Positions 1-5,092 of a stretch of 64,000 nucleotides of DNA are shown piece by piece. Position 1 is the first letter of the stretch. Every line of letters starts with the position of its first letter. The position numbers and the translations under genes were made by a program. The stretch spans positions 16,036 through 80,035 of the forward strand of contig JAAFKI010000051.1 in the NCBI GenBank assembly GCA_021399345.1. Reading direction: 5' to 3'. Origin of the DNA: Candidatus Heimdallarchaeota archaeon. Lineage in GTDB: Archaea; Asgardarchaeota; Heimdallarchaeia; Heimdallarchaeales; Heimdallarchaeaceae. Below the pieces are notes generated by a model, which worked only from the letters and a program-made list of their open reading frames with translations, did not search any database and was not told where the DNA came from.

Positions 1-760
1 AATCTTCTTTGTTTCTTCCAGGTTTTAACGTTAATCCTCCAGTTATAACAAAATCTGCTCTAGCTTCTTTTAATTGCTGAAAAAGCTCCATAAGATTTGT
101 CTTTGTATCTCCTATCCATGGAATTACAGGAGTTATATAACAACCTGCAGAAATTCCTTCTTCTCGAAATTTTTTGAGAGCTGAAAGCCTATCATTTGTT
201 GAACTCGCATTGGGTTCAAAAATAAGTTGCTCTTGTGGGTTAGAGAGAGTAATTGTAAAAGCGACCCTTGCAAATGTATCTAGATTGATTTTCTTTATCA
301 AATCAATATCTCGTAGGACTAGAGCATTCTTAGTTAATATTCTAACTGGGAAACCATAATCATAAGCTACTTGAAGAACTTTTCTTGTTATTTCTAATTC
401 TGCTTCAGCAGGTTGATAAACATCGCAAATATTGCCAAAAATATTAATGATGAATTTTGGATTACCACTTGGTATTTTTTTTCTATTTGATTGAGGTATG
501 AAATCCAAAAGGGTGTTTGTTTTTTCTCTATTGATTGGTAGAAATCCTTTGTTAATCAGATGTTCTTCAAGTAATTCAGGTGCATTAATCTTAGCTCTAA
601 TCTTATTACTATAATCATCATGCATGAAATACTCATCAGATTTTCCATCACAGTAAGAACAGTTGTGAAAGCATCCTTGATAAATATTCAAATGAATATG
701 GTGAGGACTTCTCTTAGATGTCCGAATTAGCGATTTTGCTTCATATTTCTCAATAATCAT
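1..760 (-). CDS. Radical SAM protein, SplB/Rv2578c-like (DNA-repair associated); runs off the left edge
   Basis: Not in the ORF track; manual translation from ATG at 760: MIIEKYEAKSLIRT...NIYQGCFHNCSYCDG (CxxxCxxC), DVYQPAE, ILTKNALVLRDIDL, FEPNASST. Confidence 0.85.
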   Translation of the reverse strand, partial: MIIEKYEAKSLIRTSKRSPHHIHLNIYQGCFHNCSYCDGKSDEYFMHDDYSNKIRAKINAPELLEEHLINKGFLPINREKTNTLLDFIPQSNRKKIPSGNPKFIINIFGNICDVYQPAEAELEITRKVLQVAYDYGFPVRILTKNALVLRDIDLIKKINLDTFARVAFTITLSNPQEQLIFEPNASSTNDRLSALKKFREEGISAGCYITPVIPWIGDTKTNLMELFQQLKEARADFVITGGLTLKPGRNKED

Positions 761-836
761 ACCAATCTTCCAGGAATTACTGAGAAAATAACCACATTTG
801 AATATTTAAAGGAGAAAATGAGGAAATTGGATAAAT

Positions 837-932
837 TCAGCTGCGTTTGAATTCTACTCTGAATCCACCTTTAGGATATTTCCAATCAACGCTACCATGA
901 GGACACACAATACGACAGATCCCGCACTCAAG
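837..932 (-). pseudogene. Orphan duplicate of the 3' end of fixX (last 31 codons plus stop)
   Basis: Translates LECGICRIVCPHGSVDWKYPKGGFRVEFKRS*; 79/96 nt identical to 3489-3584 by manual alignment; no in-frame ATG upstream. Confidence 0.9.
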
Positions 933-1001
933 TAATAATTTCAGAAAATCATTTAAAGATGAATATATATTATTATACAGTATTACTGGGTGTGAGATGT
1001 T

Positions 1002-2249
1002 GTGAGTGATAGTAATTTAATAAAGCTAATCAATCCTATATTGATTGCAAGAGTTCCACGCGAAGAATATACTGAGAATCTCACACTACAGAATGTACTT
1101 TCAGCAAAAAAAGACAATATGAACAAATTTTGGGATGAAAAGATAGCATTAATTATCACATTTATTGTTTCCATTGGATTCTTGATTCCTGCTGCGATTT
1201 ATGATATGGTGAGTGTTTTTAGATCAAGTGAAAATTATTCTCAAATTTTACTTCTACCTCTAAACACACAATTTAAGTTGTTTTTATATTTTTCATTTCA
1301 GTTTGGTATCATTCTGTTTATAGCTCTAATTTTCTATTCAGCATTAAGATATTACTTGATTCAGGTTAATTATAGTCCAACAAATTACAAGTACAACTGC
1401 ATAAAAAATGAGGATTTGCTATATATTCTACTCAATGAAGAAAATTGCTTAGATGAAATTATATTTTCAAAATGGAAAACTGCTGCTAATTTTGATGAGA
1501 ATCATCAAACTGAAGAAAATCTACATTCAGGTGAAAGAGAGTATTTTCTTTTCTTTGCTAAAGATTACTGGAACTGTCAATTTGCAATTCAGCCTGAATT
1601 TAAAGAAAAACTAAGTATGATTTGTATACCTTTCTTTTTAATGTCAACAATCATAATATTGGTACCTTATATTCAAAAGATCAAGGGTAACTATTCATTT
1701 ATAATAGTTCTAATAATTCCAGTTTTCGTTGTAATTGTCGTTCTTATATTATTATTAATTGAGAAAAAAATTAAGAAACCTTTAGGTTATATAGTCACAG
1801 TTCTAATTCTATTAGCTTTCATTGTAAATAATATAATGGTTGTTTTGTTTATTATATATACGAATATCTTTGCCTTTACAACCAATACTAAAAAACCTGG
1901 TTTTATAGCATCCTATTATAATATCTCTCTTTTTGCATTTTATTTCTATTCGTTTCTTGTCATATTAAGCGTTTTAGGTTCTCTAGTTGATAGGAAAAAA
2001 CAGATTCGCAGTTTTAAGCAACATTACAAAAAACAAATTATACGTATTGAAAAAACGGTTGCTCAAACAACTAATGATAATGGAGACTTAAATGGTAAAT
2101 TAATCTTATTTTATAAAAAACAGAGTGTTTTTGAGAAGGCTTCGATTCTCCCATTAAATTTTGGAAAATACATTGTAGGTTTTACAACATATCTAGGTTT
2201 TATAAGTCTTATTTCAGCTATTTTTACTTACATTCTGAATACACTTTGA
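1002..2249 (+). CDS. Multi-pass membrane protein of unknown function (island cargo)
   Basis: 415-aa ORF with about 7 hydrophobic segments; very AT-rich; no recognised motif. Confidence 0.7.
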   Translation: MSDSNLIKLINPILIARVPREEYTENLTLQNVLSAKKDNMNKFWDEKIALIITFIVSIGFLIPAAIYDMVSVFRSSENYSQILLLPLNTQFKLFLYFSFQFGIILFIALIFYSALRYYLIQVNYSPTNYKYNCIKNEDLLYILLNEENCLDEIIFSKWKTAANFDENHQTEENLHSGEREYFLFFAKDYWNCQFAIQPEFKEKLSMICIPFFLMSTIIILVPYIQKIKGNYSFIIVLIIPVFVVIVVLILLLIEKKIKKPLGYIVTVLILLAFIVNNIMVVLFIIYTNIFAFTTNTKKPGFIASYYNISLFAFYFYSFLVILSVLGSLVDRKKQIRSFKQHYKKQIIRIEKTVAQTTNDNGDLNGKLILFYKKQSVFEKASILPLNFGKYIVGFTTYLGFISLISAIFTYILNTL

Positions 2250-2280
2250 ACCCATTCAAGTACAAAAATGATTTTTTAGC

Positions 2281-2288
2281 TTTAAATA
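2281..2288 (+). promoter_or_regulatory. Possible TATA box for the zinc-finger gene
   Basis: TTTAAATA about 50 nt upstream of ATG 2335; weak evidence in AT-rich DNA. Confidence 0.3.
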
Positions 2289-2334
2289 TGGAATACCGGT
2301 TATAGAATCAGGCGTTTTACTCAAAATAAATTGA

Positions 2335-3492
2335 ATGATCTTTATGGAAGAGAAACAAGAAAAACCATTTCAATGCGGAATATGTAAACGTAGATTTAAG
2401 CGTAAAGATTACCTAAAAAGGCATATGATGGTACATACCAAGGAGAAACCATTTCTTTGTGATACCTGTGGCAAAGCTTTTTCTCGAAAAACTTCTTTAA
2501 AAAATCACTTCAGAGTGCATACAGGAGAGAAACCTTTCATATGTAAAGAGTGTGGAAAGAAATTTTCAGATAAAGGTAATCTATCAAAACATCTGAGATT
2601 GCATACGGGAGAGAAACCATATATATGCCATTTTTGTAATAAGGAATTTTCGAGATCTCATCATTTACAGTCTCATCTTAGAATTCATACTAATGAAAAA
2701 CCATTTAGTTGTACATATTGTGACAAGTCATTTTCTAGAGAATTTATTCTGAAAAACCATTTGAAAATACATACAAACCAAAAACCATATGAATGTAATT
2801 TTTGTGAGAAAAAATTTCGTCAACTAGCTCATTTAGAAAGTCACCTTCGGATACATACTGGTGAGAAACCTTACTATTGTTCTGAATGTGGTAAGTCATT
2901 CAGAACCTCATCCTCCCTTATTAGCCATAAAAGAACTCATTCTGGAGAAAAACCATACAAGTGTACAAGATGTGGAAAGGAATTTTCGAGATTATTTACC
3001 TTAAAATATCATATCAAAAATAATTCGTGTTGGTATAACAAAAAATCGTCTATTCAATGGGAAAATTTGTGCAAAGATATAGCAGAAATTCTCTTTGAAG
3101 AAAAAAAATGGAAATGGAAACCTAAAATTCTTACCCCAGAATTGGTTAATAGAAAGTGGATAATTCCTGAAATCTTAGTATTCTCACAAAATGACAAAAA
3201 GGAGCTAATTGATGCAAAAAGATCCATTGATTCTATAAGAAAAAAAGATTTAGATGTATATCCATTGTATGCTGATATTATACATTTCTGGTGTTTAGTT
3301 CCAACAAAAAGGAGAATTCAATCTAGTAATGTTAAAGTGTTAGATTCAGATGATATAATTGGTCTTCTAAAAAAGAAAGTATCTGAACAGAATTCTGAGA
3401 GAATAGACAAAATAATTTCACAAATTGAAATGTTGAAAAAAGGAATGATTATTAAAGATCAGACAATTTTGTCTGACTTCAACGAAAACTAA
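2335..3492 (+). CDS. Tandem C2H2 zinc-finger array (7 C2H2 + 1 C2HC) fused to a PD-(D/E)xK-like nuclease domain, with C-terminal PIP box
   Basis: Eight 28-aa repeats of CxxC-x3-F-x5-L-x2-H-x3-H with TGEKP-type linkers; then WE...IPE...IDAKRS; ends QTILSDFNEN. Confidence 0.9.
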   Translation: MIFMEEKQEKPFQCGICKRRFKRKDYLKRHMMVHTKEKPFLCDTCGKAFSRKTSLKNHFRVHTGEKPFICKECGKKFSDKGNLSKHLRLHTGEKPYICHFCNKEFSRSHHLQSHLRIHTNEKPFSCTYCDKSFSREFILKNHLKIHTNQKPYECNFCEKKFRQLAHLESHLRIHTGEKPYYCSECGKSFRTSSSLISHKRTHSGEKPYKCTRCGKEFSRLFTLKYHIKNNSCWYNKKSSIQWENLCKDIAEILFEEKKWKWKPKILTPELVNRKWIIPEILVFSQNDKKELIDAKRSIDSIRKKDLDVYPLYADIIHFWCLVPTKRRIQSSNVKVLDSDDIIGLLKKKVSEQNSERIDKIISQIEMLKKGMIIKDQTILSDFNEN

Positions 3493-3800
3493 CTATGTTT
3501 AAATTCTACTCCAAATCCACCTTTAGGATATTTCCAGTCAACGCTACCATGAGGACAAATAATGCGACATGTGGCACACTCAAGACACGCAACATAATCG
3601 AAGACAACGGGTCCTTCTGCTTCCTCTTCTTCTGTAAATTTGTAGCAATCTGCTGGGCATCCATATACACAATCATAAGTTGTACACTTTGCCTTACAGA
3701 TTTCTGGATTTATCTCAATATGTGCATAATTTTGATCGGTTGTGATTTTTGTTAAATCTAGTTTTTCCTCTAGTGTTTTGGGTTTGTTTGATTTGCTCAT
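3489..3800 (-). CDS. fixX: Ferredoxin-like protein FixX
   Basis: CPADCY, CLECATCRIICP, WKYPKGGFGVEF; directly downstream of fixC. Confidence 0.92.
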   Translation of the reverse strand: MSKSNKPKTLEEKLDLTKITTDQNYAHIEINPEICKAKCTTYDCVYGCPADCYKFTEEEEAEGPVVFDYVACLECATCRIICPHGSVDWKYPKGGFGVEFKHS

Positions 3801-5092
3801 AATGATCTCACCGCTCCTATTAAAAGTTTAATTAATCCAAATAATTTACCTTTTTTGAAAACATATCCTATGGCTGATGTAACTATTCTCTTTCTAGGAT
3901 ATCCGTTATTTCGTAATAGTTTTTCGAACAATCCTGTCAATAAATCAGGAACATAAGTAAACATCATTTTATTTTCTAGAAAGTGTGAAGCTCTTTTGAA
4001 TGTTTTAAGGTCTTTGTAAGCGAAGCTCTCTTTAAGTTTCTTCTTGTATAGTTTGGTTTGTTTTTTAGTATAATCGTTTGTTTGTAATATTTCTATAGCA
4101 GCTTCACCAGCTACTTTGCCTGATTCTAAGGCGAAATTTATCCCTTCAATGTATAATCCTGCATTCAGAACCATACCAGCTGCATCACCGACGACTAAAA
4201 CACCATTACCATATAATTTTGGCATGTGCTTGAAACCACCCTCTGGAATGATGTGAGCAGAATATTCTATCATTTCAGCATCTTTCAGCAGTTTTTTGAC
4301 ATAAGAATGCTCTTTGAACTCCTCAAAAACTTCAGGTGCTTTCAGCTTTTTCTTAGTTAAAACATCCATATTAAGGATGAGCCCAAAAGAAACTGTTTCC
4401 TGATTTGTATAGTAGAATCCTCCACCAGGAATACCTTTTGAATACCCTAAAATTTCGTTGTTCATACCTTCGTTATCATCTAAATGAAATCGCTCTTCAA
4501 TTTTTTTCTTAGGTAATTTATAGGTCTCTTTCATACCAAGAGCAAAATGACGAGGTTTTGGTTTTTTAGCTAGTTTTGCTTTCTCAACTAGCATGGTATT
4601 TGCACCTTCTGCAATAATTACTAGCTTTGCTTTGAGAACTTCCTCACCTGATTTTACACCAACAATTTGTTTATCATTCCACACTAAGTCTTCTACCATT
4701 GTATCTGGTAATATCATAGCTCCAGCTTCTTCTGCTTTGTCTGCTAACCATCGGTCAAACTTAGGTCTTATAACTGTCACACCATTGTATGGAACTTGAT
4801 TGAAATTCCTTAGATCTGCATCAATTGTAACACTTTTAGACTCAGAAAGTAGAGTTATTTTTTTGGTTGTAAGATATCTTTCAAATGAATTCTCATCCTC
4901 CCAGTAATTTGGGACTAATTCATTCAGAATGGGACCATATAAAGCTGCACCACTAACATTTTTTGCACCAGAATATTGTCCTCTTTCTAAAACAACAGTT
5001 TCGATACCAGCTTTAGCAAGTGTTAAAGCTGCTGAAATACCAGCAGGTCCAGCACCAACAATAGCCACATCAAAATCAAATTCTTCTGACAT
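3797..5092 (-). CDS. fixC: FAD-dependent ETF-quinone oxidoreductase FixC
   Basis: GAGPAG, GAKNVSG, RPKFDRWLA, EYSAHIIPEGG, GDAAG; operon context. Confidence 0.92.
   Translation of the reverse strand: MSEEFDFDVAIVGAGPAGISAALTLAKAGIETVVLERGQYSGAKNVSGAALYGPILNELVPNYWEDENSFERYLTTKKITLLSESKSVTIDADLRNFNQVPYNGVTVIRPKFDRWLADKAEEAGAMILPDTMVEDLVWNDKQIVGVKSGEEVLKAKLVIIAEGANTMLVEKAKLAKKPKPRHFALGMKETYKLPKKKIEERFHLDDNEGMNNEILGYSKGIPGGGFYYTNQETVSFGLILNMDVLTKKKLKAPEVFEEFKEHSYVKKLLKDAEMIEYSAHIIPEGGFKHMPKLYGNGVLVVGDAAGMVLNAGLYIEGINFALESGKVAGEAAIEILQTNDYTKKQTKLYKKKLKESFAYKDLKTFKRASHFLENKMMFTYVPDLLTGLFEKLLRNNGYPRKRIVTSAIGYVFKKGKLFGLIKLLIGAVRSL

Follow-up and report, generated by a model that had tools for sequence, protein, structure and literature searches.

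A zinc-finger nuclease (ZFN) is a laboratory invention in which C2H2 fingers are joined to the FokI cleavage domain. Here we describe a natural protein of a similar plan, encoded by an open reading frame (ORF) at positions 2335..3492 (+) of a stretch of 64,000 nucleotides from Candidatus Heimdallarchaeota archaeon (GenBank assembly GCA_021399345.1, contig JAAFKI010000051.1, positions 16,036 to 80,035 of the forward strand); this whole stretch is called the window below. The gene lies in a cassette of 2652 bp inserted in the ferredoxin-like gene fixX, and we consider it moderately likely that the protein is the free-standing homing endonuclease of this cassette. As in engineered ZFNs, an N-terminal C2H2 array with TGEKP linkers precedes a C-terminal, putatively non-specific cleavage module of the PD-(D/E)xK fold, and structural searches with that module also retrieve the FokI cleavage domain. 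Unlike them, the archaeal protein occurs naturally, has eight fingers instead of three to six and ends in a tail resembling a PCNA-interacting protein (PIP) box. Its nuclease domain belongs to a separate family without a FokI match in Pfam, and its predicted site is single and asymmetric, with no indication of a FokI-style obligate dimer on two half-sites.

The arrangement of the cassette resembles that of the mobile ORFs (mORFs) of fungal mitochondria, with examples in atp6 of Allomyces and in atp6, atp9, cox2 and nad3 of Glomus, in which the core of a gene is followed by an inserted C-terminus, an endonuclease ORF and the stranded C-terminus (C*), and whose presence varies among close relatives; the endonuclease of the Allomyces mORF is stated to have been shown biochemically to drive mobility (PMC3630166). 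The same parts, with C-termini that are 86% identical, and the same variation between relatives are found at the archaeal locus. The fungal endonucleases are LAGLIDADG or GIY-YIG proteins of organelle genomes, whose ORFs are mostly in phase with the host gene, whereas the archaeal enzyme combines zinc fingers with a PD-(D/E)xK domain, is encoded on the opposite strand and is accompanied by an extra membrane ORF on an archaeal chromosome.

The proteins of R2 retrotransposons also carry C2H2 finger(s) and a PD-(D/E)xK domain (the restriction-like endonuclease, RLE) in one polypeptide, and the elements insert at a single conserved site of the host. A Cys/His motif stands immediately ahead of the RLE in R2, in the place taken by finger 8 in the archaeal protein. 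The archaeal element differs from R2 in having neither a reverse transcriptase nor any sign of an RNA intermediate, and its fingers form a long Krüppel-type array that abuts the nuclease. In the Asgard Tn7-like transposons, the TniQ selectors bear tandem eukaryote-like C2H2 fingers that are joined by near-TGE(K/R)P linkers and match metazoan zinc-finger proteins best, and the mobile element picks a specific site with this array; there the array sits on TniQ, which is not a nuclease, within a multi-protein transposon, while here it is joined to the catalytic domain itself (bioRxiv 10.1101/2025.07.27.667033). AF1548 (1Y88), Can1/Can2 and NucS/EndoMS share the core fold of the archaeal nuclease domain (Z 8.0-9.5, root-mean-square deviation (rmsd) ~3 Å over 92-107 residues), but they are only 6-14% identical to it, have no DNA-reading arrays and are regulated differently, through cyclic oligoadenylate or mismatch recognition. 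Full-text literature searches retrieved no description of a natural zinc-finger nuclease, and the databases and literature searched held no record of a direct fusion between a Krüppel-type array and a nuclease without a family model that serves a homing element of an archaeal chromosome.

Zinc-finger array and nuclease domain

The ORF starts with ATG, is intact and encodes 385 amino acids (P0001; the coordinates include the stop codon). The array consists of eight fingers. Fingers 1-7 (2374..2940, +) are canonical C2H2 fingers of the form C-x2-C-x12-H-x3-H, located at residues 14-34, 42-62, 70-90, 98-118, 126-146, 154-174 and 182-202, while finger 8 (2962..3030, +; residues 210-232) is of the C2HC type (C-x2-C-x12-H-x5-C), as seen with regular expressions and in the family alignment. 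In Pfam, eight stretches were found with each of zf-C2H2 (E 7e-45) and zf-H2C2_2 (E 7e-63), and PF00096 reached 149 bits against a cut-off of 25.2, which identifies the protein as a poly-finger array. The fingers are joined, in order, by TKEKP, TGEKP, TGEKP, TNEKP, TNQKP, TGEKP and SGEKP, that is, by linkers of the pattern T/S-x-E/Q-K-P at the 28-residue period of C2H2 arrays, and the corresponding 84-nt period is visible in the DNA as a repeat family. The recognition helices (positions -1 to 6) are RKDYLKR, RKTSLKN, DKGNLSK, RSHHLQS, REFILKN, QLAHLES and TSSSLIS in fingers 1-7 and RLFTLKY in finger 8. The best database matches of the array are vertebrate Krüppel-associated box zinc-finger proteins (KRAB-ZNFs), with 45-55% identity. 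Finger 8 is an adapter finger, and the 'C-W-Y/F' junction that follows it is kept in those family members in which the nuclease domain is fused to C2H2 fingers.

An exhaustive HMMER search of 1.84 billion representative proteins with the C-terminal domain revealed 38 relatives (best E 5e-29). A word-indexed search with the same domain had returned none, and the exhaustive pass was needed to find them. Thirty-five of the relatives were aligned (alignment A1), and all conservation counts given here refer to this alignment. The AlphaFold2 model based on A1 had a predicted local distance difference test score (pLDDT) of 92.4 and a predicted template modelling score (pTM) of 0.85. Its elements, in the numbering of the model, are helix 4-21, strands 26-29, 48-51 and 57-63, helix 71-79 and strand 83-88, which is the alpha-beta-beta-beta-alpha-beta core of the PD-(D/E)xK superfamily. 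This core covers residues ~236-348 (3040..3378, +) according to the AlphaFold2 model, Foldseek and VIA.

The residues of the catalytic signature E...(P)D/E...(D/E)xK are placed on the matching elements, namely helix 1, strand 2 and strand 3. The acidic residue of motif I, E243 (3061..3063, +), lies in helix 4-21 of the model and is E in 33/35 sequences and Q in 2/35. Motif II, P278-E279 (3166..3171, +), opens strand 48-51; its proline is invariant, and all 35 sequences have E or D at position 279. Motif III, D293-A-K295 (3211..3219, +), is located on strand 57-63, with D or E conserved at position 293 and an invariant lysine. Outside these motifs, the pair K304-D305 (3244..3249, +) at the start of helix 2 is invariant and specific to the family, and P310 is the remaining invariant residue. 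The original prediction, made from the sequence alone, had described eight 28-residue fingers, seven of them C2H2 and the last C2HC, with the linkers named above, had read E243, P278-E279 and D293-A-K295 as a nuclease active site, and had called the whole the architecture of an engineered ZFN occurring naturally. Regular expressions and Pfam agree on the array, the motifs are found at those residues and the C-terminal domain models as a restriction-endonuclease fold with the motif residues at the canonical positions. Its concern that PE rather than PD in motif II might be a defect was not borne out, because the relatives alternate between PE and PD at this position.

The Foldseek search of the PDB returned almost only PD-(D/E)xK nucleases, i.e., Bax1, EcoO109I, AF1548, McrC, Cas4, BspD6I, NucS and HindIII, and the restriction-like endonuclease domains of R2 were among the matches with E values from 8e-4 to 6e-3. 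An independent all-against-all structural search gave Z scores for AF1548 (9.5), Can1 (8.7), Can2 (8.5) and NucS (8.0), followed by BspD6I (7.6), McrC and Bax1 (7.0 each) and the FokI cleavage domain (6.5). FokI is a neighbour at the level of the fold, with 11% identity, and no match to the FokI C-terminal family was obtained in Pfam at E<=1. At the sequence level, residues 233-385 (153 aa) matched no Pfam family even at E 1. No credible family for the domain was found in Pfam, NCBIfam or PHROGs, where the only matches were weak ones to RmuC, VRR_NUC and PinA, and when the family profile was run against the PDB sequences, all that appeared were spurious matches to VPS28 at E ~0.1. PADLOC reported a single marginal match, to the CARF_HEPN model (E 9.6e-4, 16 bits), in one of four family members. 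Based on the model and the conserved motifs, the C-terminal domain very probably has the PD-(D/E)xK fold with an intact catalytic signature, and the whole protein is probably an active, site-specific nuclease.

The cassette inserted in fixX

The host genome has a size of 3.27 Mb and is 88.6% complete, and the window belongs to a contig of 80 kb. The neighbours of the cassette are archaeal (etfB, etfA, fixC, fixX and a radical-SAM gene), and the GC content is uniform at ~30-35%. The host belongs to the Asgard archaea, and eukaryotic contamination does not account for the gene.

The inserted element (933..3584, without assigned strand; 2652 bp) was delimited from empty sites and metagenome joints. 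Besides the nuclease gene, it comprises a membrane ORF of orphan type and a 3' end that replaces that of fixX. The target gene fixX (3489..3800, -), which encodes a ferredoxin-like protein of the Fer4_ETF_QO family, is convergent with the nuclease gene, and the stops of the two genes overlap. Positions 845-932 and 3497-3584 form direct repeats of 88 nt with 86% identity. The right-hand copy (3497..3584, -) is the 3' end of fixX in use and is borne by the element, as indicated by the repeat and the alignment; the same type of allele also occurs in genome G028 and in sequencing run X2. The left-hand copy (845..932, -) is the remnant of the displaced native 3' end, i.e., the C* copy, according to the direct repeat, alignment A2 and the translation. 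It is still open and carries private substitutions. The native and the element-borne end were told apart by these private mutations and by the allele types in the runs, since identity to relatives was uninformative (83/93 versus 85/93 positions shared with G034). The locus thus has the three marks of gene-end replacement known from mORFs, which are a foreign C-terminus in use, an endonuclease ORF and a displaced native C-terminus.

In the five closest genomes of the genus, the sequence up to 932 is directly followed by that from 3486 onwards and only a single copy of the segment is present, which represents the empty site. Likewise, three sequencing runs of two studies contain contigs with ~98% identity to the flanks in which 2652 nt are missing and 843 is connected to 3496, or 918 to 3571. 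An independent cold-seep run yielded fragments, at 90-97% identity, of the finger array, the nuclease domain and the membrane ORF. A second intact cassette was recovered on a 2.7-kb metagenome contig with ~70% nucleotide identity, where the membrane protein is 55% and the nuclease 69% identical at the amino acid level; all nuclease motifs are intact, and fixX 3'-end sequence stands at both ends of the contig. A third case, in G027, is decayed: what is left of the nuclease domain is a fragment interrupted by stops, flanked by fixX on one side and by another copy of the fixX end on the other. One fixed site is therefore empty in five genomes and three runs and occupied in two intact cases and one decayed case, which is the presence/absence pattern expected of homing. 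The original prediction had named a chimeric or eukaryotic contig as a source of error, and this is excluded by the independent metagenome contigs with parts of the gene and with the empty site, together with the second intact cassette.

No single contig spanned a junction of the islet in the sequencing runs, as contigs break in the repeat, and of the words sampled from 700-3900, at most 9% occurred in any one run; no RNA run was listed among those with matches. The second-cassette contig (L118:1-2713; Logan, SRR30965930) begins and ends with the same 24 nt of the fixX-end repeat, CCACCTTTAGGATACTTCCAATCA, and this reflects a circular, excised element or else an assembly that broke within the direct repeat.

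The membrane ORF (1002..2249, +; 415 aa) is predicted to span the membrane several times. It has one homologue in 5.8 billion clusters, with 55% identity, on the contig that also holds the nuclease orthologue, where the two genes adjoin. It is absent from the 24 genomes of the genus, no PADLOC model matched it, and its AlphaFold2 model reached a pLDDT of only 39.6. A small membrane ORF in the G027 remnant showed no detectable relation to it.

Predicted target site

The site read by the fingers was predicted with a recognition code that was fixed before the scan. Helix position 6 was assigned to the 5' base, position 3 to the middle base and position -1 to the 3' base of each triplet; R, K and H were taken as G, Q and N as A, D and E as C, and small or aliphatic residues weakly as T. 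The eight helices yield the site 5'-nTG ttt tGA AtG tGG GAC AtG GnG. Among the ~128,000 positions on both strands of the window, the single best match is 3565..3588 (-), a 24-bp site that lies across the cassette boundary 3584|3585 at its finger-7/8, nuclease-proximal end. The other half of the split site was located by the code scan at 913..936 (-), where the part assigned to fingers 1-6 is kept and the part assigned to fingers 7-8 is element DNA. When the order of the fingers was shuffled, the top site fell on a junction in 1/500 trials.

The orthologous 24-mer was the top match of the locus in 19 of the 23 fixX loci of the genus. The empty-site alleles scored 33/36 in G018 (13/14 strong bases), 31 in G033 and 29 in G034, compared with 27 for the carrier, and no position of the carrier's 3.27-Mb genome scored above 28. 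According to this crude code, the predicted site overlaps the point of insertion, and empty alleles match it at 11-13 of the 14 strong bases. The G018-type site is GTGTTTAGAATGTGGGACATGTCG.

The predicted site codes for CLEC-G-T-C, part of the CxxCxxC iron-sulfur (4Fe-4S) motif of FixX, and the copy in use in the carrier reads CLEC-A-T-C. At the DNA level, the Gly-to-Ala change affects two bases, which the code assigns to fingers 3 and 4. The Ala allele also occurs without the cassette, in G028 and in run X2, where the 843 to 3496 joint has one mismatch to the right-hand copy. The distribution of alleles fits a homing cycle with sensitive, occupied, decayed and resistant states.

Among the fixX loci of the genus (L032-L054), the residues between the CxxC cysteines of the second Fe-S motif are Gly-Thr in most cases and Ala-Thr in the host genome (G000) and G028. 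Further variants are Ser-Ala in G026 and Gly-Val in G037, G035 and G023. The bases that encode these residues are the ones assigned to fingers 2-4, and their variation could be an escape of the target site.

Relatives, fusion partners and paralogues

In its relatives, the C-terminal domain is always fused to tandem DNA-binding arrays, which are C2H2 fingers with TGE(K/R)P linkers, C2H2 fingers with other linkers, DUF4379 treble-clef repeats, helix-turn-helix repeats or homing-endonuclease-associated repeats (PF18780). By shape, a bacterial cluster with PF18780 in 100% of its members matches best in the ESM atlas (template modelling score 0.70 over 121 residues, rmsd 2.0 Å). The exhaustive HMMER search gave no eukaryotic match to the domain. 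The same fusion in other Asgard genomes, which the original prediction had asked for, was found: 27 of the 400 genomes of the phylum carry the domain, including 20 of the 24 of the host genus, and the host genome itself contains four paralogues with four different arrays. Judging from these combinations, the nuclease family appears to be retargeted by exchange of whole DNA-binding arrays. A single C-terminal domain used as a query against the collection of genome contigs gave no match, and two scans of JGI metagenomes, one with protein patterns and one with a degenerate DNA pattern for DAKRSIDSIRKKDLDVYP, revealed no further copies.

The paralogue C110 (L002:796-1974) has 392 aa, with eight C2H2 fingers joined by non-TGEKP linkers and the nuclease domain, and is 40% identical to the window protein overall and 45% in the nuclease domain. 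It is located directly downstream of the uS11 gene in every genome of the genus that has it (20/24; orthologues L012-L030). Protein identity among the C110 orthologues is 60-78%, compared with 92-100% for uS11. In the alignment of 17 orthologues, the variable part is fingers 1-4; conservation is strong in fingers 5-8 and in the nuclease domain. C110 could be a fixed, perhaps domesticated member of the family. When the recognition code was applied to C110, the top match in the genome lay away from the gene; the best match near the gene, at the 3' end of uS11 (C110:1104-1127, -), ranked only ~50th in the genome and echoes the case of fixX. The uS11 gene (L002:1-702) encodes a lysine- and glutamate-rich N-terminal extension of ~140 residues in front of the conserved S11 core.

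The C64 paralogue (L095:2130-3845, -) encodes 571 aa, comprising about seven PF18780 repeats of ~68 residues each (E 3e-10) followed by the nuclease domain, and is adjoined by a DUF4145 gene and two unannotated ORFs. The C55 paralogue (L003:1483-2370, -) runs off the end of its contig and carries DUF4379 repeats instead of C2H2 fingers; a Rab/Ras-like small GTPase gene lies ~900 bp from it. Full-length relatives of the DUF4379 type (P0008, G018:C12 and G032:C3) have 522-537 aa. In three metagenomic relatives (P0013, P0018 and P0031), the nuclease domain is central, with DUF6011 and a few C2H2 fingers on its N-terminal side; on its C-terminal side follows a long array in which a Cys/His repeat of ~23 residues recurs with the pattern 'C-x2-C-...-H-V-x2-C'. 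P0009, a TGEKP-type relative of 472 aa (L093:1-10408), is encoded near genes for an NYN-domain protein, for an ATPase similar to AAA_22 and for a protein of 737 aa that matches rve, the integrase core, only faintly. This neighbourhood may be another mobile context.

The PIP-like tail

The protein has a PIP-box-like C-terminal tail, Q376-T-I-L-S-D-F382 (3460..3480, +). The sequence QTILSDFN has the Q, the L and one aromatic residue and lacks the second aromatic of Q-x-x-[LIM]-x-x-[FY]-[FY]. The looser motif Qxx[LIMV]xx[FYW] occurs within the last 30 aa of 15/35 relatives. In the complex model with the genome's own PCNA (L061:1078-1860, -), the ipSAE was 0.77, compared with 0.06 for the best of three controls; this mark was reached by 58/80 solved complexes and by 2/110 mismatched pairs. 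Three runs shared at least 79% of the contacts, the pLDDT of the partner was at least 73, and the modelled contacts place K374-F382 in the canonical PIP pocket. Since PIP-PCNA complexes are well represented among solved structures, the result is a measure of likeness and not of binding.

In 11 of the 17 C110 orthologues, a stop codon is present inside the PIP-like motif, which speaks against a general role of PCNA in the family. These orthologues stop in the motif through different stop codons (QTLL*, QTQLT*), and in two of them the aromatic residue can still be read after the stop (QTLL*NF, QTTLL*F). The sequences suggest that the tail has been lost repeatedly among the C110 orthologues.

Discussion

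Of the roles offered by the original prediction, homing fits best, given the mobile islet, the predicted target at the point of insertion and the homing-type arrays in the family, and we favour with moderate confidence the reading of the protein as the homing endonuclease of the fixX cassette. Under this reading, the eight fingers would recognise a single asymmetric site of ~24 bp, and the tethered PD-(D/E)xK domain, which follows the last zinc ligand by ~4 residues, would cut beside the finger-8 end of the site; the PIP-like peptide may dock the enzyme on PCNA in the cell. Cleavage of element-free fixX alleles would take place within the codons of the CLECGTC iron-sulfur motif. Repair would then copy in the 2.65-kb cassette together with its replacement 3' end of fixX and would leave the old 3' end downstream as a remnant, and the Gly-to-Ala change in the copied-in end might protect the carrier from its own enzyme.

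Several observations weigh against this reading. The recognition code is crude, and its assignments for weak contacts are heuristic. When only strong contacts are counted, the carrier copy ranks 13th and not 1st among the ~128,000 positions, and with 10/14 strong bases it is close to the empty allele of G034 (11/14), which leaves the immunity of the carrier weakly supported. No inverted second half-site that would explain a double-strand break is present within 90 bp of the predicted target. The element is oriented opposite to fixX and contains an extra membrane gene, unlike classic mORFs. Given the duplication of ~95 bp, host recombination through a Campbell-type single crossover could also have produced this structure with no nuclease involved. 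PIP tails are uncommon in homing endonucleases, and C110, the commonest member of the family, at its fixed locus and under purifying selection, is more similar to a host gene than to a selfish one.

These last two points lead to the reading of the protein as a host nuclease of DNA repair or replication, in which the array would guide a PCNA-tethered enzyme to chromosomal sites, for programmed breaks, site-specific repair or recombination, and the islet in fixX would be incidental. The PCNA model, the synteny of C110 with uS11 and the high conservation of its nuclease domain and fingers 5-8 are consistent with such a role, as is the presence of the archaeal PD-(D/E)xK nuclease NucS among the structural neighbours; NucS/EndoMS carries a C-terminal PIP motif. 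We regard this reading as unlikely, and it is the conservation of C110 that keeps it under consideration. The window copy is missing from the closest relatives and from near-identical strains and is therefore not essential, the PIP motif is interrupted by stops in most C110 orthologues, the predicted target is the element's own point of insertion, and the partner arrays of the family are typical of homing endonucleases. The protein could also be a DNA-binding regulator whose PD-(D/E)xK domain no longer cuts and serves for dimerisation, ligand binding or the recruitment of PCNA or another partner, with the islet formed by host recombination alone. Inactive domains of this fold exist, the matches in the atlas include a 'NACHT-associated inactive Restriction Endonuclease', and motif II of the window copy is PE. 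The catalytic positions are nevertheless kept in 35 relatives with four types of partner, and both intact cassettes retain them; motif II tolerates E as well as D, and such a pattern is that of an enzyme under selection, which makes the regulator quite improbable in our view.

The islet of two genes, specific to the strain, might alternatively be a module of defence or exclusion, in which a membrane protein and a nuclease occupy a hot spot and foreign DNA that contains the site is cut. The structural neighbours include the defence nucleases Can1/Can2, Card1, McrC and Cap4, and the paralogue with PF18780 repeats adjoins a DUF4145 gene. We consider this reading very unlikely, as PADLOC gave nothing beyond one marginal match (E 1e-3), one site of 24 bp would occur much too seldom to protect against diverse invaders, the same cassette occupies the same site in lineages that have diverged by ~30%, and the best predicted site is a host gene. 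The similarity of the fingers to vertebrate KRAB-ZNFs, finally, raises the question of whether a eukaryotic gene fragment was mis-binned or mis-assembled into an archaeal contig. This is effectively refuted by an intronless ORF with host-like GC content flanked by archaeal genes, by paralogues or orthologues in 27 Asgard genomes, by pieces of the cassette in an independent cold-seep metagenome, by an intact orthologous cassette in another metagenome and by the C-terminal domain, which lacks any eukaryotic match.

The predicted 24-bp target and the natural 'sensitive' and 'resistant' alleles make the nuclease directly testable at the bench, and genome engineers could take an interest in a nuclease that is compact, consists of one chain and has a long site readable by a code. 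The nuclease family is new to the models of Pfam, NCBIfam, PADLOC and PHROGs, and the strategy of gene-end replacement known from mORFs is extended by this locus from mitochondria to an archaeal chromosome. In the archaea closest to eukaryotes, animal-like TGEKP arrays are thereby linked to a second kind of mobile element, which bears on the origin of the largest family of eukaryotic transcription factors. One scenario, which we put forward tentatively and give little weight, is that Krüppel-type arrays served selfish nucleases and transposons in Asgard archaea as programmable readers of targets, that the family would be a natural single-chain nuclease platform in which swapping of arrays (C2H2, DUF4379, HNH-repeat, HTH) retargets one cleavage domain, and that the array of eukaryotic transcription factors may descend from such a module or have been exchanged with it.

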